NCBI GenBank assembly: GCA_023247915.1
Contig: JAHFFN010000001.1
Location: 9,417-73,416 of the forward strand
Origin: Candidatus Omnitrophota bacterium
GTDB taxonomy: Bacteria; Omnitrophota; Gorgyraeia; 2-02-FULL-51-18
Direction: 5' to 3'
Length of the DNA stretch: 64,000 bases
Below, piece by piece: positions 9,856 to 36,885 of the stretch. The position numbers and the translations under genes were made by a program. The notes under the pieces are model-generated. The model was given only the letters and a program-made list of their open reading frames with translations. It was not told the DNA's origin and made no database searches. Each line of letters begins with the position of its first letter. Within the stretch, counting starts at the first letter, position 1.

Positions 9856-10011
9856 TCAGGTGGCAGCTCGGCTCGCGGCATCGTTGGTTCGCGTTCCCTT
9901 GGCGGTTATTTTGTGAATAGTTCCATAAACCGTCAGTTTTGGGGAAGAATAGCTTTTTTTCTTGGAGGATTCGGGCTTTGTGGAAACGCGATTTTCTTTT
10001 TGTTTTGACAT
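9856..10011 (-). CDS. Lasso peptide precursor (A) gene, 51 aa, not present in the ORF track
   Basis: Manual translation gives MSKQKENRVSTKPESSKKKSYSSPKLTVYGTIHKITAKGTRTNDAASRAAT, with TGA at 9856-9858 and an in-frame TAA two codons upstream of the ATG. The leader carries a YSSPKL motif like paeninodin-type leaders (YSKPSL). A Thr lies near the cleavage site. The predicted core, AKGTRTNDAASRAAT or KGTRTND..., has Asp at position 8 or 7 for macrolactam formation and a Ser/Thr-rich tail. Confidence 0.65.
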   Translation of the reverse strand: MSKQKENRVSTKPESSKKKSYSSPKLTVYGTIHKITAKGTRTNDAASRAAT

Positions 10012-10034
10012 GGGTTAATTATAACAAATCCCTC

Positions 10035-11558
10035 TCAAATATCAACAATATCATCCTGGCGAACACTGAACATCTTTACCACATAGTCGGGACTTTGAGA
10101 TCCGAAGAAAACATGGTTTTTAGCTTGATAAAAGCCTAGCCGGATCAGCCTTTCATCCAGGTCATTGATTGCCTCGGTTTGAACGAGATTCATGGCAATA
10201 AACCACACCCGCGAAAATTTCTGAGTCCCGTGCCTGCCATTAAAATCTCTCATATCCACAAAAGTGGCTTTGGTGGAAAGATTTAATTTTTTTTGATAGT
10301 AGTCCATGATCGAATTTGGTTTCGCGATGGCGTCATTCTCCCCCGCGTGCTCCAAAACATAGCGAAACCCGCCCTCAAAATCGTCCTTGGATTCAATATC
10401 CGCGGGAAGATAAATCGCCCGAAGACTTTCTCTAAACAGCGCCACGCTGAATAAACTTAAAAATAGAAGCAGAAAAGCTCTATTTTTTAAGGTGGTCACA
10501 CTTTTGGCTAGCCATAGAATGATGAAAATTGCCACAAATCCAAAATAGCGGGACTTCAATCGGCTGTGATCCAATATCACGACGATCACAGGAAACGAAA
10601 GAATAGCGATCGCGATGAATTTTTCTTTTAGTTCGCTTTTAAAAAAGCGCCACGCGATCAAGCCCCCGGCGATGGCAAAGCATAAAGCTGAAAAACAAAA
10701 AGACCAGGAAGTTTTAAAATAATGCAGGACATCTTTATTAAAATTAATATCAAAAAACGGCCCTACGAGAGAGCTCCAATAGATGCAAAGTATTTTTCTC
10801 GGTAAAATCCACGGCCGGCTAAACAACATCTCGTCCCGACAAGAGATGGATTCGTTAAAAGGAAAGCAGGTGTTGTAAAAATGATAGAGGCACAACAAAA
10901 GCGCAGGCACGCAAACCACAAATACAACGCCTTGAAACCATAATGTTTTTTTTGGGGTCTGCTTGACCCAAACCATCCATGCATGCGCCCCAGCAATCAC
11001 CCCAAACCAAAACCAAGAAAAATGAGTCGTGTAAATAGCGGCGGCGGCTGTCAGGCCATAAACGATTCCCCACTTAGCAGGTCGCGCGGCGCGTGTCATT
11101 CTTAGAAAAAAGTAAGTCCCCCACGTATAAAAAAGAACCGGTAGTCCATGATTTCTAATTTCATTGGTCAGGTGAATAAAATAAGGTGAGATCGAAACAA
11201 AAAATGCCGCGAATAGGGCGGTTCTTTTCTCGTAGTACTCTTTTGCTAGAAAATAAACCCCAACGATCACTCCGACACCCGCTATCCATGAGGGCAGTCG
11301 AAAAGCAATTTCATTAAAACCAAAAAAACGTATCGATTCGTGCAGTAAAACAAAATAAAGCGGCGGGTGGACGTCCTGAATGCAATAAAAAATTCCCGCT
11401 TTTAAAGGCGCCTTCGCGATAAGAATACTGGCCCATTCATCGCCCCAAAACGCATGACCCCTTAAAAGCATCCAGAGTCTTAGAACAACCCCTATAAAAA
11501 AGAGAATCAAGAACATGGTTTGCTTTTCAACCACAAAGATAAAAGGGTGGCCTGCCAT
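10035..11558 (-). CDS. GT-C family membrane glycosyltransferase (PMT_2/ArnT-like)
   Basis: 507 aa polytopic protein. HPPLYFVLLH...FRLPSWIAGV...ISPYFIHLTNEIRNHGLP is the conserved N-terminal block of the ArnT/PMT-like family. It is paralogous to 15230-16705. Confidence 0.65.
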   Translation of the reverse strand: MAGHPFIFVVEKQTMFLILFFIGVVLRLWMLLRGHAFWGDEWASILIAKAPLKAGIFYCIQDVHPPLYFVLLHESIRFFGFNEIAFRLPSWIAGVGVIVGVYFLAKEYYEKRTALFAAFFVSISPYFIHLTNEIRNHGLPVLFYTWGTYFFLRMTRAARPAKWGIVYGLTAAAAIYTTHFSWFWFGVIAGAHAWMVWVKQTPKKTLWFQGVVFVVCVPALLLCLYHFYNTCFPFNESISCRDEMLFSRPWILPRKILCIYWSSLVGPFFDINFNKDVLHYFKTSWSFCFSALCFAIAGGLIAWRFFKSELKEKFIAIAILSFPVIVVILDHSRLKSRYFGFVAIFIILWLAKSVTTLKNRAFLLLFLSLFSVALFRESLRAIYLPADIESKDDFEGGFRYVLEHAGENDAIAKPNSIMDYYQKKLNLSTKATFVDMRDFNGRHGTQKFSRVWFIAMNLVQTEAINDLDERLIRLGFYQAKNHVFFGSQSPDYVVKMFSVRQDDIVDI

Positions 11559-13375
11559 AAAAGCGTGGCATCCTCATGCGTGGCGTTTTTTAAAAATCGG
11601 TTGTGACATTCCTTAAGAATCGCCAACTCCATGTACGGCGCGATCGCTTCTGTTTCTTCAATCACTTCTTTCCGGATCATGGCCTCGTGGACATTTCTCA
11701 AGGTTTTAATCAAATGCCCGCCCATATAAATTTTTCCACCGCGACGTCGGACTTTTTCTGGCAAAATATCTTTTAGACTTCTCCTCATTAGCGCACGAGT
11801 CCAGCCCTCTTCCAATTTTTGACGAGCCGGTAGCGAGAAACAAAATTCCACGAGCCTCCTGTCAAAAAAAGGGTAGCGATGTTCGATAGAAAAAGGGGCG
11901 CTTAGATGATTCATGGCTATTATATTTTCCGGAATTAGGCCGGAAGACAACTCGTTTTGCTGTTCCTGCCGAACTGTCAGAACCGCCTGCATTTGATACC
12001 CGAGATAATGCTCGGCGCGGCGTTTCAATTTTATTTTTTTTGCGAAATCTCGATTGATCGCCGTCCCGTCCATCCACAAGGGTTTCCCACGCCAGCGAAC
12101 CTGCCGCCATGCCTTCCAAACCGGCGCCGGCATCAAAGGCCTCAACGCTTTCTGCCACAACACCCTCTCCACCGGCTGTTTCAAATGTTCTGAAAGCGCA
12201 CGAGCTTCTTTAAAAAGCTTTCCCCAACGAAACCGGCTTAAAAGCTCGGTCAAATGCGCGTAGCCTCTCCCCACCACTTCATCGCCGCCGTATCCGTCCA
12301 GCAAAACTCTTACCTTCCGTTTTTGCGCCTCGGGGTACACGCCCGCTTGAAACAAGGATAAATTAGCGATATAAGGCCCGTCTAAACGCCGAAAAGCAAC
12401 CTCCGGATCTCTCAGTGGTGTCATGGAGTCCGCTTGAATTTCATGCGGTACCTTTCCTGGCAAGTCGTTCACAGATTGGATAAATTCTCTTTCGTCGCAT
12501 TCTGGAAATTGATCGAATACCAACGAAAAAGTATTCACGGAGCCTGCCATACTGACAATGGAGGAGGAGTCCAGCCCTCCGCTTAAAAGCGATCCCGCCG
12601 GAAATGCGCTTCGCAAACGGCAGTCCACCGCTTTTTTAAAAAGTTCTCTAAATCGCTCCTCACATTCCCGATCTGGCAATGAAAGAGGCTGGCTATCAAG
12701 TTCCAAACTCCAATATTTTTTAAGGACAATTTGACGCGGAGCGATGGTGAGCGAATGCGCCGGCGCCAGACAACGTATATTTTCATAAAATGTGATTTCT
12801 TTGTCTTCGCCAGACCAAAGAAGAAAATCACCAATCATGGTCTCGTTTAGGCGTGGCTCAATTTCAGGGCAACAAAAAAGCGCCTTGATCTCAGAGGCAA
12901 AGGCAAACAATCGATCTGATTTGAAATAATAAAAGGGCTTTATTCCAAAAATATCTCTCGCACAAAAAATTTGTTTTTTATTTTCATCCCAGATCGCGAA
13001 AGCGAAATCACCCAAGATCTTGTCGGGACAGGTCTCTCCCCACTTCTGGTAAGCCTTCAAAATCAAGGCGCTGTCGGAAATATCCGTTTGATTTTCGTTT
13101 TTTCCGTAAAAAATTTCGAGAAGCTCTTCCCGGTTATCAACGCGCGCGTCGGCAGTGATGGCCAGTCGTGATTTTTCGTCAAAGAAAGGAAGTTTTTCGG
13201 GGATGGACTCAGGAGTCGTCCAAAACATCCGGTGAGTGAATCCCACGGAACCCCGGCTCCAAATACCGGACGCATCGGAACCTCTAGGAACCAAGCTTCG
13301 ATTCATTCCATCCAATAGTTCGGATTCTACCGGCCTTGCGTCTCGATAATAAACTCCCGCGAGTCCGCTCATCAA
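11507..13375 (-). CDS. Lasso peptide cyclase (asparagine synthetase B-like, C protein)
   Basis: 622 aa. The AsnB fold has a PP-loop SGGLDSS. The N-terminus is MMSGLAGV, with Ser where AsnB has its glutaminase Cys, consistent with a cyclase rather than a true Asn synthetase. Confidence 0.75.
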   Translation of the reverse strand: MMSGLAGVYYRDARPVESELLDGMNRSLVPRGSDASGIWSRGSVGFTHRMFWTTPESIPEKLPFFDEKSRLAITADARVDNREELLEIFYGKNENQTDISDSALILKAYQKWGETCPDKILGDFAFAIWDENKKQIFCARDIFGIKPFYYFKSDRLFAFASEIKALFCCPEIEPRLNETMIGDFLLWSGEDKEITFYENIRCLAPAHSLTIAPRQIVLKKYWSLELDSQPLSLPDRECEERFRELFKKAVDCRLRSAFPAGSLLSGGLDSSSIVSMAGSVNTFSLVFDQFPECDEREFIQSVNDLPGKVPHEIQADSMTPLRDPEVAFRRLDGPYIANLSLFQAGVYPEAQKRKVRVLLDGYGGDEVVGRGYAHLTELLSRFRWGKLFKEARALSEHLKQPVERVLWQKALRPLMPAPVWKAWRQVRWRGKPLWMDGTAINRDFAKKIKLKRRAEHYLGYQMQAVLTVRQEQQNELSSGLIPENIIAMNHLSAPFSIEHRYPFFDRRLVEFCFSLPARQKLEEGWTRALMRRSLKDILPEKVRRRGGKIYMGGHLIKTLRNVHEAMIRKEVIEETEAIAPYMELAILKECHNRFLKNATHEDATLLWQATLLSLWLKSKPCS

Positions 13376-14328
13376 TCCTTGACCCGGATGAGCAGGCCTT
13401 TAAACATCAAACGCTTCACATAAAACTTAAGATCTTTTTCCAAGCGAACAGGATCCACCTCGTATTCTTTTTGTATCGCCCGGGACACCGCTTTCACGTC
13501 CTTTAATTCCTCCAAAAGCTCCCAGAAATGCGAAGCGATGCCGTCGAGCCGTAAACAAATCCTGGTTTTCGCGTTCACGACGAGTCGACCACTAGCGGTT
13601 CTTTTTGAGACCACCTCGTCCGGAATCTGCACCCGCGACACTGGCCGATTGTCAGGTCGGCGCGTTTTCATTTTAGTTAAGACAGTCCCGTCCGAACCGA
13701 GCCTCATAAACGAAACTCCGCGTTTTTTCGGCAGAAACCAACCAGCCAACACTGTTCTTGGGTTTCGACCCGTCGGCATCGTGACCCGGTGCTGAAGCTT
13801 TTTGGAGATGCGAAATAAAAAAGCATTTCCAAATCCGGTGTTGGCGATCTGTGCGGTAATCTTTTTGGAAAACCTGTTCCTTATTTTAAAAACCCCGCCC
13901 TGATAAACACGCTCGCTTAAATTCACGCTAATCCCTACATAACGCAAATGCCGGACGTCGATGTCATTGTGCCAATGATCATAATGGCCGCGGCCGGGAA
14001 TTAAAGAATACATGCGCCCGGCAAAACACCCGATTTTTTTACAACCCGTGATTCGTTCCACCGCTTTAAAAAGCGCGGGATCGTTGAGCAGAAAATGCAT
14101 CGCGTTAATCCCGGTATTTTGTCTCATGCAAGACTCGGTGGCGATGCCCCTATCTGTTCTGGGGTAAAATTCAGCCGAACGAACCGTCTGTTGAATAAAT
14201 TTCAGTAAGGATTTATCTAGAAATTTTTGGATTTTAATTAGATTCGTTTGAGAATATTTATTTTGAACTTTCCTTAGATTTTTTTTAGAAAAAGAAATAT
14301 GAGTGCCCGTCTTTTTGATTTGTATCAT
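13372..14328 (-). CDS. Fe(II)/2OG oxygenase domain fused to a C-terminal PqqD-like RiPP recognition element (RRE)
   Basis: The start is probably MIQIKK at 14328, forming an ATGA overlap with the upstream paralogue's stop. The N-terminal domain has HxD (WHND), a distal His (QHRVT) and RNPRT...GWF (prolyl-4-hydroxylase-like 2OG-binding Arg/Thr). The C-terminus, ICLRLDGIASHFWELLEE...QKEYEVDPVRLEKDLKFYVKRL, matches PqqD. Confidence 0.6.
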   Translation of the reverse strand: MIQIKKTGTHISFSKKNLRKVQNKYSQTNLIKIQKFLDKSLLKFIQQTVRSAEFYPRTDRGIATESCMRQNTGINAMHFLLNDPALFKAVERITGCKKIGCFAGRMYSLIPGRGHYDHWHNDIDVRHLRYVGISVNLSERVYQGGVFKIRNRFSKKITAQIANTGFGNAFLFRISKKLQHRVTMPTGRNPRTVLAGWFLPKKRGVSFMRLGSDGTVLTKMKTRRPDNRPVSRVQIPDEVVSKRTASGRLVVNAKTRICLRLDGIASHFWELLEELKDVKAVSRAIQKEYEVDPVRLEKDLKFYVKRLMFKGLLIRVKD

Positions 14329-15194
14329 ACGTTTTTTAAAAAACCATGCGCGTTTAAATGATGAGCCAAAGACAAAACATCTTTTTCTAAAACATCGGGA
14401 GCTACACGATATTCCTTTTGAAGTTCCCGCAAAGCTAATTTCAGATGAGGTCTCTTTTTCAGATGATCCCACATCTTTCCCGCTACCGGGTCTAGCTCGC
14501 ATAATAAACTACGTTTTGGATCAAAAATAATTCTTTTTTTGTCTTTGGAATATTCCAAAAGTCCCTGGGGAATCTTCCATCGCGCCCCGTTTTTTTTGTT
14601 TGGCCTTACGACAATTTTTTTAGAACGCTCAAATGGTAAATCCGCACACGCGCAAAACCACCCGGTAAAAGCCGTTTTTGGATTTTTACCTCCGATGGCC
14701 GTCACGCGATGTTGCAAAAAACTAGCAACGCGAAACAAAACAACGTCCCCCAGTCCTGTGTTTTTGATCTCATGTAAAATATTTTTAGAACCGCGACGGC
14801 GTATCTGAAGAATCCCGCCTTGATAAGGTTTGGGACTCAAATTTAGGGTCAGCGCGACTCGCCGACCATACACCAAATCGTTATGCCAACGCATGGAGTC
14901 TTGATAACTGGGCAAAAGACGATAAGTGCGCCCGGTAAAAGAGCGGATACCGGCACAGCCGGTAATTTCTTTTATTTTTTTTAAAAGGGAGGGGTCATTC
15001 AACAGAAATTGAAGCGTATTGGATCCGGCGTTTTCACCGATCATGGACTCCGATCCACCGGAATCTTGATAGCGGAATGGTTTTGATTTCTTAAGAGCCT
15101 TCAGAATTTCCCGCAACAGTTTCTTGTTCAGGAATTTAGGCAAGCGAACATAATGATGCTTCTGATAAAATCGGCGCAGAGAGCTCGGAACCAT
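14325..15194 (-). CDS. Fe(II)/2OG oxygenase-RRE fusion, paralogue of 13372-14328
   Basis: 289 aa. FLLNDPSLLKKIKEITGC...WHND...YQGG...QHRVT...KNPKT..TGWF is followed by the PqqD-like LLCELDPVAGKMWDHL...LQKEYRVAPDVLEKDVLSLAHHL. Confidence 0.6.
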   Translation of the reverse strand: MVPSSLRRFYQKHHYVRLPKFLNKKLLREILKALKKSKPFRYQDSGGSESMIGENAGSNTLQFLLNDPSLLKKIKEITGCAGIRSFTGRTYRLLPSYQDSMRWHNDLVYGRRVALTLNLSPKPYQGGILQIRRRGSKNILHEIKNTGLGDVVLFRVASFLQHRVTAIGGKNPKTAFTGWFCACADLPFERSKKIVVRPNKKNGARWKIPQGLLEYSKDKKRIIFDPKRSLLCELDPVAGKMWDHLKKRPHLKLALRELQKEYRVAPDVLEKDVLSLAHHLNAHGFLKNV

Positions 15195-15229
15195 GGACGT
15201 ATTTTACCTCAAACGAGTATAATGAATCC

Positions 15230-16705
15230 ATGTTCCTATTTCTTATTTGCTTGCTTGGAATGGCACTGCGTTCGGCGCTTCTTTGGACAAATCGATCCTT
15301 TTGGTTTGATGAATGGGCTAGCATTGCCGTCGCCCAACACCCTTTAAGCCAAGGGATTAAAATTTGCGCGCTGGACACTCACCCTCCCCTTTATTTTGTC
15401 CTTCTGCGCCTTTCAGCCGTACTTTTTGAATTCAAAGAATGGGCTTTTCGTCTGCCATCCCTGGCGGCGGGTATCCTGCTTTTAGTTTTTGTGGCGCTTT
15501 TAGCCAATCGTCTTTTTGGAAAAAAAGTGGCGCTTCTATCCGCTTATTTTGTCGCGATCTCTCCTTATTTCATCCATCTTTCTTATGAAATAAGAAATCA
15601 CGGGCTTCCGATTCTTTTTTATGCGGCAGGAAGTTTTTTATTTTTTAAAATGATTGAAGGTTCTGATCGTAAACGTTGGCAATGGAGTTATGCCCTAACG
15701 GCCTGCGCGGCGCTGTACACAGTGCATTTTGCCTGGTTTTGGCTAACCGGGATTTTGGGGCTTCATTTTTTTCTTTCGCGAAATGAAGAAAACGCCAAAA
15801 AAGCCCTAAAGATTCAGGCGCTTGTGCTTTGCTTGGGAATCCCCGAACTCTGTCTTTTGGCTTACAACGTCCTGCATCGTGATGAAATCAGAGGATACAA
15901 TCTGGCTTCGCTTCATAAAATCGCGATTGCCGCCAAAGAAATTGTTTTTGTTTACTGGAATATTCTCGTCGGGTCGCGATTTTACATGCACTGGTCTTCA
16001 TCTATTTTTAGCGCCATGCGATCTTCCGTATTTTTTTGGCTGTCTTTGACTTTATTTCTTCTGGCAAGCGTTTCGATTGTCTATGAATTTTCCATGATTT
16101 TTAAAAAACAAAAAAGTCTTTTCTATTTTCTTATTTTTATTTGTTTTGTTCCTGTTTTTTTGGTGAGTCTCATCAACACCAACCGTCTGGACGCGCGCTA
16201 TTTTTCATTTGCGGCACTTTTTTTGATCCTCATTTTTTCAAAGAGCCTGATCGATTCCCATTCGAAAAAAAGCCGAATCGCGCTGATTGTTCTGACCACT
16301 CTCGTTTCGCTGAACGGGTTTGTTTACCTCGCGCAAACCCATGTTGATCCAATGCACCGGGACGATTATCAGGAAATGACGCGCTATGTTTTAACGCATG
16401 CTAAAAAAAATGATTTGGTTTTTATCAGTTCCCCGGTGGTGAATTATTATTCGAAAAAACTCGGGATTGCTTCTCAAGCCGTCCTTACCGAGGATCTAGG
16501 TGCATGGACTCGGAGCAAGGCGAGCCACATAGAAAGAATCTGGATTACCGGGGGAACTCCGTTAACTTCTTGTTTTTTTAAGGAGCTCGCGGATCGAATG
16601 GAAGCTCTGGGATTTGTTCCTGAATTAAAGTTTATCGATTTTGGCGGGGAAGACAACAATACCGGCCTGAACGTATTTAAGAATCAGGCATTCTCTAAAA
16701 AATAA
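15230..16705 (+). CDS. GT-C family membrane glycosyltransferase (PMT_2/ArnT-like)
   Basis: 491 aa. HPPLYFVLLRL...FRLPSLAAGILL...ISPYFIHLSYEIRNHGLP is homologous to 10035-11558. The gene is divergently oriented from the oxygenase-RRE genes. Confidence 0.65.
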   Translation: MFLFLICLLGMALRSALLWTNRSFWFDEWASIAVAQHPLSQGIKICALDTHPPLYFVLLRLSAVLFEFKEWAFRLPSLAAGILLLVFVALLANRLFGKKVALLSAYFVAISPYFIHLSYEIRNHGLPILFYAAGSFLFFKMIEGSDRKRWQWSYALTACAALYTVHFAWFWLTGILGLHFFLSRNEENAKKALKIQALVLCLGIPELCLLAYNVLHRDEIRGYNLASLHKIAIAAKEIVFVYWNILVGSRFYMHWSSSIFSAMRSSVFFWLSLTLFLLASVSIVYEFSMIFKKQKSLFYFLIFICFVPVFLVSLINTNRLDARYFSFAALFLILIFSKSLIDSHSKKSRIALIVLTTLVSLNGFVYLAQTHVDPMHRDDYQEMTRYVLTHAKKNDLVFISSPVVNYYSKKLGIASQAVLTEDLGAWTRSKASHIERIWITGGTPLTSCFFKELADRMEALGFVPELKFIDFGGEDNNTGLNVFKNQAFSKK

Positions 16706-17934
16706 GTTTTCTCTAACCATTCTTGGATAGCGGATGCGACTACTTGATGGCCGCGTGGATTCCAGTGCACATCAATTTTATAATTTAGGTTTTGATCGGG
16801 AAACGCGTTTACTTCTTTTCTTAAAAGAGGCGTTAAATTTAAAAACGGTATTTTATTTTTTTGAGCTAACACTTCCACCCTCTTCTCAAGAGTCGTGGTT
16901 TCGGTCAGCCATTCTTTCCGGACAACAAGCCCCAGCTGAATAGGGAGCGTATCAAATCCGGGGTCATACTGGTAAGGACAGGGCGCGTAGATAATTCCGA
17001 CTTCTATCTTGCGCGATTGGCACTTTTGAATCATTTTAGAAAAAATAGTCTCCATCGCCTTCCAGTTCTTTTCATCCTTAGGCGTAGGGATGTCCAACGA
17101 GGAAGTCCAATAGTCCGGCCGAGTCAAAGCGAACTTGACTCTATAAAATCCCACCCGGCTCTCATTAATCTCTTGAATGGCATCCGCAGGCACTTTTTTA
17201 AGCCAGTCATCGATTCTTCCTTGAGAAACATGACGGAGTCTGGCCTCTTGAAGAGTCTCTTTCACAACATCCAAACTTTTGGCTGATTCCCATTTCCTCT
17301 GCCCATGGTAACAAGCTTTTCTTATAAGCATAAGTAGCTTTGGAAATAAAATTTTAATTTTTTCTTTTAAAAAATTCCTTAAGGGGTTTAGTGAGTCGGT
17401 GGATGGCGCCTCATCATTTCCCGCCTCATCCACACCACTGTCTCCCGTGTCTTCCACATCGTTGGCATAAATCACAAACAAAACTTTATTGGGGTGATAC
17501 TTTAAAGCTGTTTCCGAAAGCATGCGCGCATATTGAGGAGGCCCGAAACCGGAAATTCCGCAATTAATAAAAGAGATTCTCTTGCCGGACTTACGGTATT
17601 GATTTTCAAGAATCGCCGGAAAAGTTTGATCCGCTTCTACCCCTTCCCCCTCAACAAAAGAATCGCCAATCACCACCACTCTCTCTTCATCCGGAGATCT
17701 TTTAAACGGAATATTTTGATAACGAATTCCCTGACTGTTGGATTTGATGTGATAAATACCATTTAAAAATTTATTCGTGGACTCATAATATCGAGGGTAC
17801 GACGCCTTGGAGGATTCTCCCTCAACCCAAACCAGTAAGGGCTCCACAACAAAACACATCGCGATAAACGTTAAAAAAAATAAGGCGCTGTTTTGGATTA
17901 TTTTAAGAAGCTTCATTAAAAAATCCTTGCGCAT
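16684..17934 (-). CDS. SGNH/GDSL-fold protein of the AlgX/AlgJ type (putative polysaccharide O-acyltransferase/esterase)
   Basis: 416 aa. N-terminal TM segment, then GDSFVEG (GDS block), IYANDVED, and DVHWNPRGH (the DxHW motif of AlgJ/AlgX). Confidence 0.55.
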   Translation of the reverse strand: MRKDFLMKLLKIIQNSALFFLTFIAMCFVVEPLLVWVEGESSKASYPRYYESTNKFLNGIYHIKSNSQGIRYQNIPFKRSPDEERVVVIGDSFVEGEGVEADQTFPAILENQYRKSGKRISFINCGISGFGPPQYARMLSETALKYHPNKVLFVIYANDVEDTGDSGVDEAGNDEAPSTDSLNPLRNFLKEKIKILFPKLLMLIRKACYHGQRKWESAKSLDVVKETLQEARLRHVSQGRIDDWLKKVPADAIQEINESRVGFYRVKFALTRPDYWTSSLDIPTPKDEKNWKAMETIFSKMIQKCQSRKIEVGIIYAPCPYQYDPGFDTLPIQLGLVVRKEWLTETTTLEKRVEVLAQKNKIPFLNLTPLLRKEVNAFPDQNLNYKIDVHWNPRGHQVVASAIQEWLEKTYFLENA

Positions 17935-19150
17935 CCAACCATGATTTAATTGTTTTGGCCGCGACGCGATGGCCTTCGGGCGTCCAATGAACGTCGATGT
18001 GAAAATTAAGCGGCTTTTCCGCGTGTGGGTAAGCTTCCCGCAGTGCCGGCGTCAGGTCTAAAAAAGATATTTTTTGCGCCTCCGCCAAAGACCGGAGACG
18101 TTTTTCAAATGCCGTTTCCTCGGTCAGCCATTTTTTCTCCACTCGAAGCCCAAGATTCACCGAAACGGGGTCATGATCGGGGTCGTACTGAAAAGGGCAA
18201 GGAATATAAATCATCGCGATTTCCACTCCCCGGCTCCGGCAGTGATCGAATATTTGATTTAAGGTTTTGTCCACGGCTTTCCATCGTTCTTCGGATTCGG
18301 GATCGGAAATATCCAGGGACTGTGTCCAAAAATCGGGCTCCAACAAACCCGCGACCAACCGGTCATGGCAAATCATGAAATGATTTGTTTTTTCGAGATC
18401 TTCTTGAGGAATTTTTTTTGCCCATTCTTCCACTTTTTTAGCAGGAATGCCCTTCCGCATCGCCTCGGCTCTTCCCAATTGAATGACGTCAAATTGTTGA
18501 TGTCGATCCCTGAAATACCGGTAACGCATCAGAGCACCTCTAAGTAAAGTGTACAATCTCGGGAAAATAGCGTGCGCCGCTTTCTTGATCCCCTTTGGTT
18601 CTTCCGGGATCTCTTCTAAGTGAAGCGGCGTTTTCCAATCCGTTTTGCTTATTTCTTGAAGTGTCGGCATGTCATGCAAATCATTCGCGTAAATAGCCAA
18701 AAGCAATTTATCCGGATGATAGGAGAATCCGATCTTGTCTAAAACTCTCGCGTACACATCGGGATTAGCCCCTGAGATGCCACCATTAATGAATAAAATA
18801 TTTTTGTTTTCTTCCGAATATTCCTTTTCAAGAAGAGCCGGGAAAGCCTGTTCAGCTTCCACTCCCAGTCCTTCAACAAAGGAGTCCCCTATAACCAATA
18901 CTCTAATCTCCTCGGGAGATTTTTTTTCTTGGGAAATGTCAGGGTAACGGATTCCTTCACGATTGGCTTCAAAGTGATACGTGCGGTTGATCAGATTCAT
19001 TTCTTTTTTAAAATAGGCGGGATACGACACTCTTTTTTCGAGATTTTGCGAAAAACCGCACCACTCGAGCGTCTTTTCGGACAGCCCCAGCATCAAAAGC
19101 GTCGTGAATAAAAAAATGCATGCGTTTTTGAAAAACAATCCGCTCTTCAC
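17903..19150 (-). CDS. SGNH/GDSL-fold AlgX/AlgJ-like protein, tandem paralogue
   Basis: 415 aa with the same blocks: VIGDSFVEG, IYANDLHD, DVHWTPEGH. Confidence 0.55.
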   Translation of the reverse strand: MKSGLFFKNACIFLFTTLLMLGLSEKTLEWCGFSQNLEKRVSYPAYFKKEMNLINRTYHFEANREGIRYPDISQEKKSPEEIRVLVIGDSFVEGLGVEAEQAFPALLEKEYSEENKNILFINGGISGANPDVYARVLDKIGFSYHPDKLLLAIYANDLHDMPTLQEISKTDWKTPLHLEEIPEEPKGIKKAAHAIFPRLYTLLRGALMRYRYFRDRHQQFDVIQLGRAEAMRKGIPAKKVEEWAKKIPQEDLEKTNHFMICHDRLVAGLLEPDFWTQSLDISDPESEERWKAVDKTLNQIFDHCRSRGVEIAMIYIPCPFQYDPDHDPVSVNLGLRVEKKWLTEETAFEKRLRSLAEAQKISFLDLTPALREAYPHAEKPLNFHIDVHWTPEGHRVAAKTIKSWLDAQGFFNEAS

Positions 19151-19860
19151 CGGTTTTTTCCCTTGGCTCTGATTTTAAAAATCATCCCAAAAGCGTCGGC
19201 TAATTTCCCGATAGTCAATTTGGAGTCGCCTCTTTCGCGGTTCAAAAAATCAATCGGGATTTCGACAATATCGAAACCTTTCCGGTGACACACTTCCAAC
19301 ACTTCGAACACAATCGAAGGCCCCGTCGAAACCATCGAGCTCAAATCAATGGATTCCAGAGCCTTTTTTCTAAAACAACGAAAGCCGGAGGTGCAGTCCT
19401 TGTAAGGCATTTTCAAAAATACGCGTATTGCTCCGTTAGCCATGCCGCTCAACGCGTTCCTCAGCATTCCCCTGTTTTTGATAGCGCCTTTCTTTAGATA
19501 TCTGGAACCAATCACGACATCATGCGAGCGCGCGGCTTCTAAGAAATCAGGGATTTTTTCCGGCGCGTGAGAACCGTCGGCATCCATCTCCAAGATAGGG
19601 TCATAGCCTTTTTGGACGGCGTATTCAAATCCTTGCACGCCGGCAAGGCCGCGGCCGCGGGCACCTGTTCGTGAGATAAGCTCCACTTGAGAAAAATCAG
19701 CAGCTATTTTTTTCACGCATTCGCCGGTTCCGTCAGGAGAGGCGTCATCCACGACGATCAGACGGGCTTCGGGAATCAGCCGAAGAATTTGCCTTAAAAG
19801 CGGTTCGATATTTTGCGCTTCATTGTAGGTAGGAATCACAATCGCGGGAAAAGAAGTCAA
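19147..19860 (-). CDS. GT2 polyprenyl-phosphate sugar synthase (Dpm1/ArnC-like)
   Basis: 237 aa. IPTYNEAQNI, VVDDASPDGTGE and EMDADGSH are the GT2 DxD-type blocks of polyprenol-monophosphate hexose synthases. Confidence 0.75.
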   Translation of the reverse strand: MTSFPAIVIPTYNEAQNIEPLLRQILRLIPEARLIVVDDASPDGTGECVKKIAADFSQVELISRTGARGRGLAGVQGFEYAVQKGYDPILEMDADGSHAPEKIPDFLEAARSHDVVIGSRYLKKGAIKNRGMLRNALSGMANGAIRVFLKMPYKDCTSGFRCFRKKALESIDLSSMVSTGPSIVFEVLEVCHRKGFDIVEIPIDFLNRERGDSKLTIGKLADAFGMIFKIRAKGKNR

Positions 19861-20303
19861 CGATTCAAAGCCTTATAAATCGGAACGAAGTGTTCTTTTT
19901 TTTGGCTCTCGCCCAACACCACACGACCACCGCTCTCCATCCAAGCATGCGCTTCCAAAGAAGCGCTCGGATTCTTACTGACACCGATATAAAGCTCCGA
20001 GGCATGCCCCGACTCTAGGAAAAGAGCCTGCGCAACCAGGGCTTTGGACAAGCAATTTTCGGCAAAACGGCTGTGAGCACTGACGGATTCAATCGCCCAA
20101 ATTATTTTTTCTTTGGAAATACCGCTAAGAACATTCCTCCGTTTCAACAGAAGAATAGGTTGAAATAAAAACTGCATCTGCTTTAGAGGAATAAAAAAAG
20201 TAAAAAAACGACTCACATTTAAAAGAATAAATACTCTCACGATTAGTTTTTTTTCGACCCAGGGTATTTGAAAAAACCGTTTTTTAATTTTCTTTGGATT
20301 CAT
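19857..20303 (-). CDS. Lasso peptide leader peptidase B2 (transglutaminase-like cysteine protease)
   Basis: 148 aa. ENCLSKALVAQALF...ELYIGV...LEAHAWMESGG matches the Cys...His core of lasso B2 (PF13471-like). Confidence 0.8.
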   Translation of the reverse strand: MNPKKIKKRFFQIPWVEKKLIVRVFILLNVSRFFTFFIPLKQMQFLFQPILLLKRRNVLSGISKEKIIWAIESVSAHSRFAENCLSKALVAQALFLESGHASELYIGVSKNPSASLEAHAWMESGGRVVLGESQKKEHFVPIYKALNR

Positions 20304-21553
20304 CGCTTCAGTCTATCAAAAGCCGGCTTGAGAGCAACAGCGGAATAAAAAATAAAGACAAAGTCCATCGGTGCCCGGAGCCGCGTCGCGGGCCAATAAA
20401 ACGCGTAAATCAAAGTCAGGCTCACGACAATCACCCAAAGAAAAATATCTTCTCTAAAAATAGACCGTCTTCTCAAATAAATACCGGCAATCGCTGTGAT
20501 AAAAATAAAAAGATGTGTCACTGAATAGGCCGCCTCCACAAGGAGACTTCGACTAGACGCTCCTGAAATCATAGGGCTTCCGTCGGAGCCGGTCTTCAAC
20601 TGCACCGACTCCTCACACAGATAAAACGGAACCAATCTCGGGTGAAATAAATAAAGAATGTTAAGCGCTTTGAGTCGTATCGTCCTCCAAGGATGCTCCC
20701 GCATAAACCGGAATGCTTTTTGTTGGAAAAGACGGTCGACCTCTGTTTCGGAAGTATCTTTAATTTTAATACCATCCGCTTGAAGCGTCTTGAACGCATA
20801 GTCACCCAGCACATCCACGCTGTATCGCGGGATCACATAATCCGAGTATTCGCAATTGCCTTTAAACAAATTGTAACCACTGCGAGTAGGGACGATGGAG
20901 CCGGTGAGAGTAAAATTTCTGTAAAACATCGGAAATGCCGTCACAAAAACAACTAAAAAAAGAATGGCCGCGTCCCGGAATCTTTTTTTGAATAAAAGAA
21001 TCCCCATTCCTATCAGGACAACCGGGAAAATAACAAATCTCGTTAAAATCGTAAGCCCCAGAGCTAATCCGCAGCCCGCCGCCGCCCTCCATTTTTCAGT
21101 GTTCAAATAATAATACGAGGCTACAATCAAAAGTGTCATAAATAATGGTACCTCGATGATCCCAACAGATTGTCGGATAAGATAAGGATGAAAAGAATAC
21201 AGAAAGACCGCGATCAATCCGACGCGGGATTCTCGCGTAAGCGCCACACAAAGTTTATACAGAAAAATAGTTCCCAAAGCACTGACACCGATTTGAGCCA
21301 TCATCACCCAAAAAAATTGATCCCCAGACAGCCTTCGAAATACCGCCAAAAACAACGGGTAAAACGGTTCATACCAAGAAGTCTCCATTCCTCCGTCAGT
21401 CCACCTCCAACGATGCAACAATTCTTGCATCCAGTATGGGTTCCCGGAGGTTCGAAGTGTTTTAAAATAAAATGAGAGGTAAGAAAACCGGGGAATAAAA
21501 CTCAGAGAGAAAATTAAAAAATATTTTCGCTGATGGGGGAAAAAATCCATCAA
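20300..21553 (-). CDS. GT-C-like polytopic membrane glycosyltransferase
   Basis: 417 aa with about 10 TM segments. It is placed between B1 and B2. GT-C family assignment rests on hydropathy pattern and context only. Confidence 0.4.
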   Translation of the reverse strand: MMDFFPHQRKYFLIFSLSFIPRFSYLSFYFKTLRTSGNPYWMQELLHRWRWTDGGMETSWYEPFYPLFLAVFRRLSGDQFFWVMMAQIGVSALGTIFLYKLCVALTRESRVGLIAVFLYSFHPYLIRQSVGIIEVPLFMTLLIVASYYYLNTEKWRAAAGCGLALGLTILTRFVIFPVVLIGMGILLFKKRFRDAAILFLVVFVTAFPMFYRNFTLTGSIVPTRSGYNLFKGNCEYSDYVIPRYSVDVLGDYAFKTLQADGIKIKDTSETEVDRLFQQKAFRFMREHPWRTIRLKALNILYLFHPRLVPFYLCEESVQLKTGSDGSPMISGASSRSLLVEAAYSVTHLFIFITAIAGIYLRRRSIFREDIFLWVIVVSLTLIYAFYWPATRLRAPMDFVFIFYSAVALKPAFDRLKR

Positions 21554-21843
21554 ATTTTTATTTCAATAAGGCGGGCATCCGCCAATTGATTCAAAACCTG
21601 TAAGATATCCTTCTCGCACGATTCTGTATCCACATCGTATTCTTTCAAAACCGCTTTTTGGATATCCCGCACAAAAATAGGCTTGTCTGAAATAAGATTC
21701 CACACAAACGCGCCCACCGTGTTCAAACCGTAATACATGCCCGCTTTGAGATCCAACACCACCGCCTCTCCGGACAAATCACAAGAAACCTGGTCTTTAG
21801 CCAGACAAACCAAAGCATCCAAAGACAGAGCATTGTTTTTCAT
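21550..21843 (-). CDS. Lasso peptide B1 protein (PqqD-like RRE)
   Basis: 97 aa. AVVLDLKAGMYYGLNTVGAFVWNLI...IQKAVLKEYDVDTESCEKDILQVLNQLADARLIE is a canonical PqqD/RRE. Confidence 0.8.
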   Translation of the reverse strand: MKNNALSLDALVCLAKDQVSCDLSGEAVVLDLKAGMYYGLNTVGAFVWNLISDKPIFVRDIQKAVLKEYDVDTESCEKDILQVLNQLADARLIEIKI

Positions 21844-23342
21844 GTTTCGACCCCCCGAGGAGTTCTTCTATAAACTTCTAAGTCATTTTTCGGAGGTTTT
21901 ATTTTCCAACGGCCAAAACCAATCTCCCCTTTATGATTTGGATTGGAATCTAGAGTGTCCTGCAAAAACCATTCACCCCCAATGTCTCCTTTATAATCTG
22001 CAATAGAATCCGGCCGGATAATCACAATCGACACGTCTTTTTTGTCTTTTTCGGTAAATGTGCTGTATGTCCATAAAAATACATGCGGAGTAATCGCCTT
22101 AACCGCGTAATACGGCAAAAAGCCGCAATACACGACGTCCTCTTTTTTGACATGTTTTTTGATAAAAGTCTCGACCATCCGGTAATCCCTAGCCTCGTAT
22201 TGATACAAAATCAGAGCCAGTCTTGCAGGTAGTCCAGCGATCAACACGAAGGAGATGATGGCCGCCAAAAGAATTTTCTTTTGTTTAGCGCCCAGAGAAA
22301 AATCAGCAGAAAACAGTGCCATAATAACGCAAATTCGAAGCGGTAGACTGATTGTCCAGGAATACTGCACGTGAAAATCCCATACCAGCCACATGATCAA
22401 CGGAAAAAGAAGAAATACCGTTCCGGCAAACCGAAGCCGTGTTTTTTGTTGAGACGTTAGGTAGCGTCCCGCCTTCCATAAAAGGAATAACGCAACAATA
22501 AAAAGAAAGATAGCCCCAACCGAAGCATTTTGAATCACCAAAAGTCTTTGTTTTTCCTGCCAAGTTTGGCCAAAAAAAACATACTGTTTGTTATAAGCCA
22601 AAAAAGCGTCCATCGCGTCATGCCAGCCAAAAAATGCCAGCATCCACGGGATCCCTGAGAAAAACCCGAGTCCCATCATAATAAATTCGTCCAAAAATGC
22701 TTTTTTAAAATAAAAAAAGAAAAGCACTGCGATAAAAATACCATAAAGCACTAGTGGTAACTGTACCCAGGGACAAATAAAAGCCAAAACAAAAATTGAA
22801 ATGAACCGTCCGTATTTATTTTTGATTGAAAAAGAACACAAAAGAGCGGCGGCCAACAAAATTGCCAGCGCATCCTGTCTTCCGCTTCTATAAGAGATCG
22901 TCGCCCCATGTCCACAGAGAGCCAGCACTAAAAGCGTCAAGCGGCCGCGGGTATCCTTGAACCAACCGAATCTCAGCGAGGACAACCATAAAAAAAATCC
23001 TGCCAAAGCCGCAAAAAAATAACCCATGGATCGGATTGTCGTAAGGCTAAATCCAAATATTTTAAGCCAAACAGATAAAAGAAGCGGGTAGAGTGGCACG
23101 TAGCAAGACCAAAAATCATGCCCACTTTGAAAAGGCCACGCATTGGAAACAAATCCTTCACCTAAATATAGATTTAGGCCGGGACTTACATAAAAAACTT
23201 CGTCATACCAAGGAACTGGTGATAAATGAGCGGTGAATAAATTAACTAAAAAGAAAACACTTAAAATCAACGCAACCCACCATGATTCATTTTTGCAGGA
23301 CATACGGCACTCCATAATCTCCGCTACTCCCCCCCTGCGCAT
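21840..23342 (-). CDS. GT-C-like polytopic membrane glycosyltransferase
   Basis: 500 aa. Many TM segments and an N-terminal periplasmic-loop WYDEVFY (DE motif). The start may be an internal Met. Confidence 0.4.
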   Translation of the reverse strand: MRRGGVAEIMECRMSCKNESWWVALILSVFFLVNLFTAHLSPVPWYDEVFYVSPGLNLYLGEGFVSNAWPFQSGHDFWSCYVPLYPLLLSVWLKIFGFSLTTIRSMGYFFAALAGFFLWLSSLRFGWFKDTRGRLTLLVLALCGHGATISYRSGRQDALAILLAAALLCSFSIKNKYGRFISIFVLAFICPWVQLPLVLYGIFIAVLFFFYFKKAFLDEFIMMGLGFFSGIPWMLAFFGWHDAMDAFLAYNKQYVFFGQTWQEKQRLLVIQNASVGAIFLFIVALFLLWKAGRYLTSQQKTRLRFAGTVFLLFPLIMWLVWDFHVQYSWTISLPLRICVIMALFSADFSLGAKQKKILLAAIISFVLIAGLPARLALILYQYEARDYRMVETFIKKHVKKEDVVYCGFLPYYAVKAITPHVFLWTYSTFTEKDKKDVSIVIIRPDSIADYKGDIGGEWFLQDTLDSNPNHKGEIGFGRWKIKPPKNDLEVYRRTPRGVET

Positions 23343-24612
23343 TGATAAAAGTCATCATCAGCGGATAAATCGCCGCCGTCGCTACTAGAGATACGATAAT
23401 CCATGCGCCCACCAAACACCGCGCGGCCTTGTCCCCAAACCATGGAGTGACGCGGCGATAAATCGCAAAAAAACCGAGCGCGATCGCCACAAACACATAA
23501 GGCATCGCCGGAATCATGTGATGCGGATAGACATCAATAGGAGACATCAGCATAAATAGCGGGAAAAAGATCAAAGCAGCAAAAGCGGTCGCGTATTCGG
23601 GTTCCGCGTCTCTGGTGTGCCCTAATTTGATCACTTCCACGAGACCCTCCATGAAAGGCCACGCCAGAATCGCTGTCGCCAAATGAATGAATCCTGTAAG
23701 CCACCCACACGGCCAACGCATAAATTTCATAAATTCATCATCAGCGAGCGCATAGGTCGCTTCCCACCCTGTCGCAAAACTGAAAGGGTGTTTCAGTGGC
23801 ACCATGTGCGCGTTGGAAACAAAAATGGATATAAATTTAAACGGGCTAATGAGCTGCAAGCGCGCTTCGCCGGTAAAATGCGATACCATCGTAAAAACAG
23901 CCCATGGAAAAAATAATGCCACGGACACTCCGATGCCGGCCATCAAACTGGGTTGATGAAATTGAACCTTCCTGCGCCAGGCTGTCCAAGCCAGCGCTAC
24001 TGCCAAAGCAACCGTCGGTAAATACATCTCCGAAGCCAAGGCAATTAAGCATAAAAGAGGAAAAATCGCGCGACTTCTTGATTTTTGAAGCACGCGAACA
24101 AAAAGAGCTAACGCTGGAATCAGAAAAGGCAGGATGAGATCCGGTGACCAAAGTTTGCGTGAAAAAGTGATTGCCCATGGGGAAACCGCAAAAAACGCGA
24201 GCGCAACCAACGCGATCCAACGCCAACGAGAACGAAAAAGACCATACGCCGCCGCCGCAAGACCTATGATGTTGAGCAGGACAACCCACACCACTGTCCC
24301 AAGAGGCGTGCGACCCAGCCATCGAAACAACGTCGTGGTATAAATAAATAAAGGCAATTCATAGATATCGCCCATGCTTGTTTTTAGCCCATAAGGAAGA
24401 AAAGTGGGATGTTTTAAAAAATTTCCCGCCATCACATAAGCATTTTGCTCATCTTCTTTCCATTCCATCGATGAAAAAAAAGATAGGCGGAGCCACGCTC
24501 CGATAATGACCACAAGCACAAACCAAATCCAATGGATAGAGTCTTTATTTTTATCTTCTTTAGGAGATAATCGCGGCATGGATAGCCTCGCAAACGGTTT
24601 CAATATTTTCAC
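23287..24612 (-). CDS. GT-C-like polytopic membrane glycosyltransferase
   Basis: 441 aa. EWKEDEQNAY acidic motif in the first loop, followed by many TM segments. Confidence 0.4.
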   Translation of the reverse strand: MKILKPFARLSMPRLSPKEDKNKDSIHWIWFVLVVIIGAWLRLSFFSSMEWKEDEQNAYVMAGNFLKHPTFLPYGLKTSMGDIYELPLFIYTTTLFRWLGRTPLGTVVWVVLLNIIGLAAAAYGLFRSRWRWIALVALAFFAVSPWAITFSRKLWSPDLILPFLIPALALFVRVLQKSRSRAIFPLLCLIALASEMYLPTVALAVALAWTAWRRKVQFHQPSLMAGIGVSVALFFPWAVFTMVSHFTGEARLQLISPFKFISIFVSNAHMVPLKHPFSFATGWEATYALADDEFMKFMRWPCGWLTGFIHLATAILAWPFMEGLVEVIKLGHTRDAEPEYATAFAALIFFPLFMLMSPIDVYPHHMIPAMPYVFVAIALGFFAIYRRVTPWFGDKAARCLVGAWIIVSLVATAAIYPLMMTFINAQGGSSGDYGVPYVLQK

Positions 24613-36493: not shown

Positions 36494-36498
36494 AATAT

Positions 36499-36759: not shown

Positions 36760-36765
36760 AAAAAC

Positions 36766-36853: not shown

Positions 36854-36885
36854 AAAAACTATTTTAAGTCAGCAAACAAGAATGG

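Follow-up and report, generated by a model that had tools for sequence, protein, structure and literature searches.

A paeninodin-type lasso peptide cluster interleaved with membrane glycosyltransferase genes in an uncultured Omnitrophota bacterium

Gene content of the locus

We analyzed a stretch of 64,000 nucleotides from a Candidatus Omnitrophota bacterium (contig JAHFFN010000001.1 of assembly GCA_023247915.1), hereafter called the window, in which the genes for a lasso peptide, a peptide made by the ribosome and modified after translation (RiPP), lie among genes for membrane glycosyltransferases. The region from 1.7 to 36.5 kb contains a complete lasso cluster of the kinase/nucleotidyltransferase type (paeninodin-like), interleaved with glycosylation genes. 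The latter comprise five transferases of the GT-C fold (with weak evidence for one, 23287), three GT2 enzymes of the dolichol-phosphate-mannose synthase (DPMS)/ArnC type, three SGNH/AlgX-like enzymes, a GDP-sugar tailoring set and a Wza/Wzc pair. Gene identities, order and overlaps were read directly from the window. Genes are named here by their first coordinate, and lie on the minus strand unless stated otherwise.

Scans with Pfam and NCBIfam and a listing of the open reading frames (ORFs) showed that minus-strand genes run nearly gap-free from 29767 to 1688, the only plus-strand gene inside this block being 15230–16705. Transcription begins with genes for a methyltransferase (29003), a GT2 (28290), a C-methyltransferase (27067), a Gmd-like dehydratase (26087), a 138-amino-acid (aa) protein (25677) and a DegT-type aminotransferase (24560), followed by the probable GT-C 23287, the GT-C-fold transferase 21840, the lasso protein B1 (21550), GT-C 20300, the leader peptidase B2 (19857) and a second GT2 (19147). 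Further downstream are two SGNH/AlgX-like enzymes (17903 and 16684), the plus-strand GT-C 15230, two oxygenase-PqqD fusions (14325 and 13372) and the lasso cyclase (11507). The last part consists of GT-C 10035, the precursor (9856), the peptide kinase (8950), a PF14907 protein (7860), an ABC transporter (6169), Wza (5168), Wzc (3329) and an AsmA-like protein (1688). Upstream of the minus-strand run, from 29.6 to 36.5 kb, are an M3 peptidase, the third SGNH/AlgX-like enzyme, a DUF748/AsmA-like protein, the third GT2 and an epimerase. The sequence-only reading had placed two GT-C genes among B1, B2 and the cyclase, and this was confirmed: 20300 is located between B1 and B2, and 15230 between B2 and the cyclase.

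Neighboring genes overlap by 4 bp at eight junctions of the locus. Five consecutive overlaps chain GT-C 21840, B1, GT-C 20300, B2, GT2 19147 and SGNH 17903, another lies between the cyclase and the oxygenase gene beside it, and the remaining two occur among the sugar-tailoring genes. This spacing suggests that the lasso and glycan modules are co-transcribed as one long operon. A sigma-70-like promoter (10018..10045, minus strand; TTGATA-16-TATAAT with a TG extension, 11/12 positions) is the best match in the interval from 1.5 to 21 kb. It lies immediately upstream of the precursor gene, partly in the 23-bp gap and partly in the 3' end of GT-C 10035, which suggests that the genes for the precursor, kinase, PF14907 protein, ABC transporter and Wza/Wzc can also be transcribed separately.

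The lasso cyclase (11507..13375, Asn-synthase-like) scored 669 bits against NF033535 (cut-off 525), and the transglutaminase-like leader peptidase B2 (19857..20303) matched NF033537 with 68.3 bits (cut-off 33) and Transglut_core3. The stand-alone B1 protein (21550..21843, 97 aa), a RiPP recognition element (RRE) of PqqD type, scored 69.5 bits against NF033536, below the 80-bit cut-off; it matched PqqD in Pfam and is 43–51% identical to the PqqD proteins of the related lasso loci L002, L089 and L090. The precursor (9856..10011, 51 aa, MSKQKENRVSTKPESSKKKSYSSPKLTVYGTIHKITAKGTRTNDAASRAAT) carries YSSPKLTVYG...KIT in its leader and is the sole match in the window to the motif YxxPx[LV]..[YH]G....[IL]T, which is common to the precursors beside six related cyclases. 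With the conserved Thr placed at position -2 (KIT-A|KGTRTND in the window), rings of 7–9 residues ending in Asp are predicted for the window precursor and for the six related ones. The predicted core, KGTRTNDAASRAAT (KGTRTND-AASRAAT), would close its ring at D7, and its lasso topology is likewise a prediction. It ends in Thr and contains four Ser/Thr in 14 residues, so that its earlier description as Thr/Ser-rich holds in part, the core being moderately rich at most.

The HprK-like peptide kinase (8950..9852) matched TIGR04352 weakly and is 30–39% identical to kinases of related lasso loci annotated as ScmC/Hpr_kinase_C. It is followed by the PF14907 protein (7860..8999; NTP_transf_5, 134 bits), which has a nucleotidyltransferase fold and belongs to the Pfam class of PsmN, and by an ABC exporter of half-transporter type (6169..7884; ABC_membrane and ABC_tran), 32–36% identical to its counterparts in lasso loci L002 and L005. 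The best NCBIfam matches of the exporter include HepA and PglK, and it was considered as a flippase for lipid-linked sugars; this was rejected because its homologues follow the kinase in L002 and L005, and is further undercut by L002, which has no adjacent glycan enzymes.

Two proteins combine a 2-oxoglutarate/Fe(II) (2OG-Fe(II)) oxygenase with a PqqD-type RRE: 14325..15194 (2OG-FeII_Oxy_3 and PqqD) and its 36% identical paralogue 13372..14502, the true start of which is probably downstream, giving about 318 aa. The HxD...H triad is invariant in the alignment of these fusions, and no solved structure matched the fusion by sequence. Two sister clusters also have such a fusion, located immediately upstream of their cyclase (L005, 2–790; L008, 8395–9339). 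Cyclase, B2 and B1, the leader motif with Thr at -2 and Asp/Glu at 7–9, the kinase, the PF14907 protein and the exporter, all features of the paeninodin type, are present. Judged by these features, the lasso cluster is genuine.

Membrane glycosyltransferases and their sugar donors

The sequence-only reading described an expansion of at least six GT-C paralogues around the RiPP genes. Four genes of the locus are GT-C genes. GT-C 10035 (10035..11558), between the cyclase and the precursor, scored 57.6 bits against PMT_2, and the motif W-x-DE-W after its first transmembrane (TM) segment is invariant or nearly so across 33 sequences of its family. GT-C 15230 (15230..16705, plus strand; 60.9 bits) is a paralogue with 35% identity to 10035, and has a promoter-like site of its own at 15194–15223. 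GT-C 20300 (20300..21553; 37.2 bits), with 4-bp overlaps on both sides, displayed no obvious counterpart of the acidic motif after TM1. These three exceed the PMT_2 gathering score, as does 63067 (63067..63993; 26.8 bits versus a cut-off of 26.1), a separate GT-C outside the locus, truncated by the end of the window.

The fourth, 21840 (21840..23342), had no Pfam or NCBIfam match and was assigned from its fold. An AlphaFold model based on nine homologues (predicted local distance difference test, pLDDT, 84; predicted TM-score, pTM, 0.87) gave 16 PDB matches at E <= 0.001, all of them GT-C enzymes (PglB, ArnT, ALG9/ALG12, STT3, DPY19 and AftB). The highest TM-score, 0.60, was to ArnT. Residue D47, in a WxDE motif after TM1, is invariant in the family alignment. 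The evidence is weaker for 23287 (23287..24612): its PMT_2 match (18.5 bits, E 0.0025) is below the cut-off, nine or more TM segments are predicted, and TM1 is followed by an acidic motif, WKEDE. We regard it as a probable GT-C. A crude hydropathy scan suggested 6–9 or more TM segments for the GT-C proteins.

The GT-C genes are thus present, but only 10035 and 15230 are detectably paralogous. In BLASTP comparisons 10035 and 15230 matched each other, and the other GT-C proteins matched none of the set. Since BLASTP joins these two only, the set is, at the level of sequence similarity, four or five distinct lineages and not a paralogue expansion. A further comparison was uninformative: hhalign of a thin three-sequence GT-C alignment against 20300, 21840 and 23287 gave probabilities below 10%. 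The AF2 model of 10035 from three sequences was poor (pLDDT 60), its fold matches being to GT-C enzymes only and uninformative on the acceptor. In phmmer searches of 10035, 20300, 21840 and 23287 against all PDB chains, neither ArnT nor any other solved GT-C was found. The window GT-C proteins matched no NCBIfam ArnT model, no STT3 model of Pfam and none of PF02366, MIR and PMT_4TMC at E <= 0.01, and are thus not placed by sequence in the ArnT, PglB/STT3 or PMT (GT39) families; for PglB/STT3, the likeness is at the level of the fold only (TM 0.45–0.50).

The distal GT-C 63067 had been counted as lying in or beside the RiPP genes. We do not include it in the locus, because 27 kb of housekeeping genes (molybdenum cofactor (Moco) biosynthesis, nitrate assimilation, tsf and pyrH) separate it from the lasso block and because it overlaps another gene. 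In the interval 61260–63993, an MsbA-like ABC transporter gene (TIGR02203, 531 bits, below the 602-bit cut-off) overlaps its 3' end by 11 bp. The two genes are likely a lipid A/lipopolysaccharide (LPS) modification pair that is unrelated to the lasso block.

The proposal of three GT2s of the polyprenyl-phosphate-hexose-synthase type was supported for all three genes. They matched Glycos_transf_2 with 121.6 bits (28290..29006, 238 aa), 93.6 bits (19147..19860, 237 aa) and 81.5 bits (34878..35612, plus strand), and their best solved relatives are the dolichol-phosphate-mannose synthase 5MLZ, ArnC and the GtrB protein sll0501. The first matched 5MLZ at E 5e-35, and then ArnC, the second matched 5MLZ at E 1e-28, and the third matched ArnC structures at E 2e-17. 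The top NCBIfam matches of the set were AglJ, PpgS, Dol-P-hexose transferase and ArnC (the first three of these for 19147), all below the equivalog cut-offs. With 237–244 aa and no or one weak hydrophobic segment, the three proteins resemble the short Dpm1 type, and the C-terminal TM helices of ArnC and GtrB are absent from all three.

Genes for sugar tailoring are located at the start of the long operon. The first encodes a SAM-dependent methyltransferase (29003..29767; Methyltransf_11/25), which overlaps the next gene by 4 bp. The others are an NDP-sugar C-methyltransferase (27067..28359; Methyltransf_14, Methyltransf_13 and Methyltransf_23), a GDP-mannose 4,6-dehydratase-like protein (26087..27070; GDP_Man_Dehyd, 313 bits; TIGR01472, 339 bits, cut-off 415) and a DegT/LegC-type sugar aminotransferase (24560..25750; DegT_DnrJ_EryC1, 427.6 bits; TIGR04181, 357 bits). 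The 138-aa protein between the last two (25677..26093), for which the public record has a gene call, has no predicted TM segment and no Pfam or NCBIfam match. An NAD-dependent sugar epimerase/reductase of the Epimerase family (35597..36493, plus strand) follows the third GT2. From the co-located DPMS/ArnC-type GT2s, we infer that the GT-C enzymes use a sugar donor linked to a lipid phosphate. The enzymology proposed in the sequence-only reading is well supported by the occurrence, in the same operon, of GT2s, GT-C-fold enzymes and a GDP-sugar tailoring set (Gmd-like, C-methyltransferase and DegT).

Three membrane-anchored SGNH/AlgX-like proteins, esterases or acyltransferases, complete the glycan module: 17903..19150 (Lipase_GDSL_2 and ALGX; one N-terminal TM segment), its tandem paralogue 16684..17934 (39% identity) and 32164..33426 (ALGX, 51.7 bits). 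At the downstream end of the operon, the Wza-type outer-membrane polysaccharide export protein (5168..6079; Poly_export and SLBB, best NCBIfam match TIGR03027) is followed by the Wzc-type chain-length determinant/tyrosine autokinase (3329..5155; Wzz, GNVR and AAA_31; TIGR01007, 150 bits, cut-off 108). Both hallmarks of a Wza/Wzc-dependent polysaccharide system, Wza and a Wzc-type bacterial tyrosine kinase, are thus present. Two AsmA-related envelope proteins were identified, an AsmA/YhdP-like protein (1688..3295; sub-threshold YhdP, AsmA and DUF748) and a DUF748/AsmA-like protein (33649..34806).

Genomic context of related genes

Relatives of the cyclase number in the thousands, the closest being 47–48% identical. 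We read seven related lasso loci, in which compact gene sets surround the cyclase (C) and precursor (A), with B1/B2, the kinase (K), the PF14907 protein (N) and an exporter in varying combination and order. The gene orders are B2-C-A-K-N in L001, B1-B2-C-A-K-ABC in L002 and Oxy/PqqD-C-A-K-N-ABC in L005, and in P0003 C-K, with N and PqqD on the opposite strand. In sister loci with B1 and B2, B1-B2-C-A form an unbroken series, and sister loci have nothing in the place that GT-C 10035 occupies in the window between cyclase and precursor. A GT-C gene was found in 0/7 of these loci, indicating that, in this comparison, the GT-C enzymes are dispensable for this lasso family.

In three of the seven loci, as in the window, polysaccharide genes immediately surround the lasso genes, with a different set of glycan enzymes in each case. 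Locus L008 (GCA_964606485.1, contig CAZSGP010000001.1, 128–150 kb) has the order Oxy/PqqD-MT-C-A-K-N-OM barrel-Wza-Wzc-Gmd-like (MT, methyltransferase; OM, outer membrane) and shares with the window the succession of kinase, PF14907 protein, exporter or OM barrel, Wza and Wzc; identities to the window are 46% for Wzc, 41% for Wza and 50% for the Gmd-like protein. No B2 peptidase or stand-alone B1 was found within 10 kb of its cyclase. In L089 (GCA_023250515.1), two lasso-type cyclases, a kinase, two PqqD, three PF14907 proteins (one of them as a fusion with a methyltransferase) and a PRMT-like methyltransferase lie beside GT2, Bac_transf and ABC-2 genes. L090 has the order GT2-Wzy_C-PqqD-B2-C-A-K-N-AsnS-GT4 amid sugar-nucleotide genes. 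L001 and L002, by comparison, contain the lasso set without adjacent glycan enzymes. Since this lasso type occurs in polysaccharide loci of very different enzyme content, the recurring association, as judged from these loci, is with polysaccharide production in general and not with GT-C enzymes specifically.

The converse comparison started from the GT-C proteins. A word-indexed search with 10035 returned the window paralogue and one other protein only, the gene of which precedes a GT2. An exhaustive profile search with the 10035 family returned 81 representatives at E <= 1e-30 among 1.84 billion, and by this measure the subfamily is rare but real. The alignment of 33 sequences was too diverse for a scan of loci, and a 10-sequence alignment was used instead. 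The GTDB representatives, which do not include the genome of the window, gave two loci with relatives of 10035/15230: in L003 (Omnitrophota), the GT-C gene follows a UDP-GlcNAc 2-epimerase and a GT4, and in L004 (Planctomycetia), it is followed by a DPMS-like GT2. A metagenome scan with the 10035-family profile gave another 80 loci (932 kb in total, median 10.8 kb). In tblastn searches with all window proteins, a cyclase, B2, PqqD, kinase or PF14907 gene was detected in 0/80 of the metagenomic loci, and lasso genes in 0/2 of the genome loci. A DPMS-like GT2 directly follows the GT-C in the full-length subfamily members L010, L011 and L012, as in L004. In L010, the GT-C lies amid YfhO, PMT_2, GT2, GT4, GT9 and Bac_transf genes, which resembles an LPS/O-antigen cluster.

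P0129, the protein closest to 21840 (39% identity), is surrounded by GT4, GT9, methyltransferase, carbamoyltransferase, GT2 and Glycos_transf_4 genes, and P0130 by four GT4s, Wzy_C, Bac_transf and DegT. P0129 and lasso locus L008 are on one 546-kb contig, where an unread stretch of about 25 kb separates both loci. Thus, in the loci read, the nearest relatives of the 10035/15230 and 21840 GT-Cs sit in clusters of LPS/exopolysaccharide (EPS) type without RiPP genes.

The surroundings of the locus were also inspected. Three tRNA-Ser genes bracket the 35-kb block, with anticodon CGA at one end (1583–1667) and GCT and TGA beside seryl-tRNA synthetase at the other (36764–36854 and 36883–36970). A direct repeat of about 135 bp also brackets the block (approximately 1428–1562 and 36498–36635, 35,070 bp apart, mean column identity 84%), each copy terminating in a partial 3' end of the neighboring tRNA (e.g. 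1426–1443). The arrangement looks att-like, and no integrase was seen beside it in the window scans. GC content is uniform over lasso, glycan and housekeeping genes (0.41–0.50); GC3 is uniform as well, and a recent insertion of either module was rejected on these grounds. At 646–1407, a short way beyond the tRNA-Ser boundary, is a gene for a 253-aa protein like methylphosphonate hydroxylase and PhyH-type oxygenases (179 bits, cut-off 500). Divergent from the start of the long operon is an M3 oligoendopeptidase-F-like gene (29634–31547, plus strand), followed by a gene for a secreted protein of 214 aa that matched no family (31544–32188, plus strand). From 37 kb on, the window contains housekeeping genes, including seryl-tRNA synthetase, Moco biosynthesis, nitrate assimilation, pyrH and tsf.

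The acceptor of the sugars and comparison with known systems

We consider it somewhat better than an even chance that the glycan module is a lipid-phosphate-sugar system which decorates the envelope and is co-transcribed with the lasso cluster. The region from 1.7 to 36.5 kb would then be a composite envelope locus of an uncultured diderm, with two co-transcribed modules. The first would provide a paeninodin-type lasso pathway with two hydroxylases, each equipped with a leader-binding domain of its own. In the second, a GDP-hexose would be dehydrated, C-methylated and aminated by the Gmd-like, C-methyltransferase, DegT and methyltransferase proteins, and the three DPMS/ArnC-type GT2s would load sugars on undecaprenyl phosphate at the cytoplasmic face. 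The lipid-linked sugars would be flipped, by a flippase that was not found in the window scans, and the GT-C-fold enzymes, five in number and belonging to four or five unrelated lineages, would transfer them to a periplasm-facing acceptor. The three membrane-anchored SGNH/AlgX-like enzymes may add or remove O-acyl groups. By analogy with ArnC/ArnT, RgtE/RgtD/RgtF and GtrB/GtrC, the most probable acceptor is an envelope glycan, which may be the LPS core, lipid A or else the polysaccharide of the adjacent Wza/Wzc. If the peptide receives a sugar at all, the kinase and PF14907 route, giving a phospho-hexose on the C-terminal Ser/Thr, is the likelier one. LPS or polysaccharide decoration had been mentioned in the sequence-only reading as the alternative to peptide glycosylation, and is the option favored by the comparison of loci.

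Several observations weigh against envelope decoration as the sole explanation. It does not account for the interleaving of the two modules at single-gene resolution, with translational coupling; since B1-B2-C-A are contiguous in sister loci, several independent rearrangements must have been retained, which points to more than co-location. In the Pfam scan, which covered most ORFs of at least 100 aa, no initiating phosphoglycosyl transferase, Wzx, Wzy or GT4 was found in the window, and no GtrA/ArnEF-type flippase; the source contig extends past the window, and these negatives cover the window only. The samples are small, with seven loci for the lasso side and two loci for the 21840 family. 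The GT-C relatives used for context are only 26–39% identical to the window GT-Cs, so that acceptor specificity may not transfer. The interleaving and the absence of backbone and flippase genes from the window keep three other explanations alive.

One of them builds on the proposal of the sequence-only reading. The lasso peptide, exported by the ABC transporter, would be O-glycosylated in the periplasm by the GT-Cs, on Thr/Ser or on residues hydroxylated by the oxygenases, with undecaprenyl-phosphate sugars from the three GT2s; the sugars would possibly be unusual C-methylated amino sugars. The peptide as acceptor was weakened by the comparison of loci (0/7 lasso loci with a GT-C; 0/80 and 0/2 GT-C loci with lasso genes), and we regard it as unlikely. 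The coupling of GT-C and GT2 genes with B1, B2, cyclase and precursor speaks in its favor, as does the position of 10035 between cyclase and precursor, the four Ser/Thr of the 14-residue core, and the absence of glycan-backbone genes from the window. GT-C enzymes can glycosylate Ser/Thr of exported proteins, as known for PMT and for the pilin arabinosyltransferase TfpW, and glycosylated lasso peptides exist, made by other enzyme types. However, the closest homologues of 10035/15230 and 21840 are found in LPS/EPS-type clusters, the MIR, PMT_4TMC and STT3 features of known peptide-acting GT-Cs are absent, and a set of five GT-Cs, three synthases of lipid-linked sugars and three SGNH proteins is large for a peptide of 14 residues. 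The sequence-only reading had also named an observation that would speak against peptide glycosylation and for insertion of the RiPP genes into a pre-existing envelope locus, namely GT-C/GT2 sets with identical synteny in genomes lacking RiPP genes. Relatives without lasso genes were found, but because the homologues are 26–39% identical and the synteny differs, the match is not a strict one. No literature report of a GT-C acting on a RiPP was found; were the proposal true, this peptide would be the first RiPP tailored by a GT-C/lipid-linked-donor system and the first with a tailoring step after export, and both the class of enzyme and the cellular compartment would be new to RiPP tailoring.

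Peptide and glycan could also form one product or pathway, which we consider quite improbable. The PF14907 enzyme might phosphoglycosylate the phosphorylated C-terminal Thr, with other enzymes of the locus extending or decorating the product and Wza exporting the conjugate, or the lasso peptide might serve polysaccharide export by Wzc/Wza as a cofactor, structural or regulatory. That this lasso type recurs in polysaccharide loci with very different enzymes is consistent with such a link, as is the gene order from kinase to Wzc that is kept in L008. We know of no peptide-polysaccharide conjugate of this kind, the chemistry is entirely inferred, and L001 and L002 have lasso sets without adjacent glycan enzymes. 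A biochemical precedent is PsmN, which installs a hexose on phosphate (PMC6993621). The explanation to which we give the least credence is that there is no functional link, the modules having been shuffled together in a horizontally acquired island and co-inherited. The tRNA-Ser genes and the direct repeat that bracket the block agree with it, and polysaccharide loci are recombination hot spots. Against it are the uniform composition, the lack of an integrase in the window scans, the recurrence of the association between lasso genes and polysaccharide loci in unrelated lineages, and the overlapping start and stop codons, which indicate selection for co-expression.

Decoration of the envelope, the reading we favor, is best compared with ArnB/ArnC/ArnT and with RgtE/RgtD/RgtF of Rhizobium. 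Shared features are nucleotide-sugar tailoring with a DegT-type aminotransferase among its enzymes, a GT2 for loading of undecaprenyl or bactoprenyl phosphate with the sugar, and GT-C transferases, several distinct ones per organism, at the periplasmic face. The Rgt lipid A galacturonic acid (GalA) transferases, with a bactoprenyl-P-GalA synthase, set a precedent for multiple GT-Cs on LPS (PMC7663294). In contrast to these systems, the window GT-Cs that were searched have no sequence-level match to ArnT or another solved GT-C, no NCBIfam equivalog cut-off was reached, and the GT2s are without the C-terminal TM helices. The donor is probably GDP-derived (Gmd-like) and C-methylated, and the genes are interleaved with RiPP genes. 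Ppm1/Dpm1 with PMT, and GtrA/B/C, similarly combine a polyprenyl-phosphate sugar synthase with a GT-C acting outside the membrane, whereas in the window PF02366, MIR, PMT_4TMC and GtrA matches are absent and only the generic PMT_2 is found.

Among lasso systems, the kinase and PF14907 pair is the signature of paeninodin and pseudomycoidin (PMC6993621, PMC9266682). PsmK phosphorylates the C-terminal Ser and PsmN is needed for the hexose on the phosphate of the lasso peptide; pseudomycoidin is also a precedent for synthesis without a B protein (PMC6993621). The window shares with this type the precursor, B1, B2, cyclase, HprK-like kinase, PF14907 protein, ABC exporter and C-terminal hydroxy residue. 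It differs in its diderm host (Wza, AsmA-like and MsbA-like genes), in a C-terminal Thr instead of Ser, in two RRE-fused 2OG oxygenases, and in glycan genes that lie between the core lasso genes, not merely around them, with GT-C/DPMS-type neighbors. A 2026 paper reported paeninodin-like lasso clusters, and a related linear-peptide family, inside capsular polysaccharide loci of Bacilli, and suggested that the surrounding polysaccharide genes might modify the peptides, their biological role being unknown there (PMC13381572). As in the window, those loci combine the lasso genes with a polysaccharide locus that has a tyrosine autokinase (PMC13381572). Our literature search for a link of lasso peptides to Wza, or to HPr kinase and exopolysaccharide, returned nothing relevant.

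Two other lasso tailoring enzymes have counterparts of a kind in the window. In the davasin pathway, IgtG glycosylates the mature lasso peptide, attaching several sugars to Ser with UDP-glucose used directly (PMC11912497). It is, like the window GT-Cs, a membrane-associated glycosyltransferase encoded in a lasso cluster, but it has a DXD glycosyltransferase domain and uses UDP-glucose and not a lipid-phosphate sugar. To our knowledge, nothing comparable to the action of IgtG on a lasso peptide has been shown for GT-C enzymes. The 2OG/Fe(II) hydroxylase CanE acts on the linear precursor and needs B1 (PMC9266682). The window proteins would, like CanE, be RRE-assisted 2OG oxygenases for a linear precursor, whereas in the window the RRE is fused to the oxygenase and the gene is duplicated; the fusion is kept in L005 and L008, both without GT-C.

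Thus, both halves of the locus are already known, as envelope glycosylation of the ArnC/ArnT and Rgt kind and as paeninodin-type lasso clusters, including those in capsule loci of Bacilli. New are the occurrence of the pattern in an uncultured diderm lineage, the translationally coupled interleaving at single-gene resolution, and the partner enzymes, which are of GT-C/DPMS type and not cytoplasmic transferases. The recurrence of this lasso type in polysaccharide loci across distant lineages suggests that phosphorylated lasso peptides of this type have a role in the envelope or in biofilms and are not classical antibiotics, and the locus is a compact test case for such a role.

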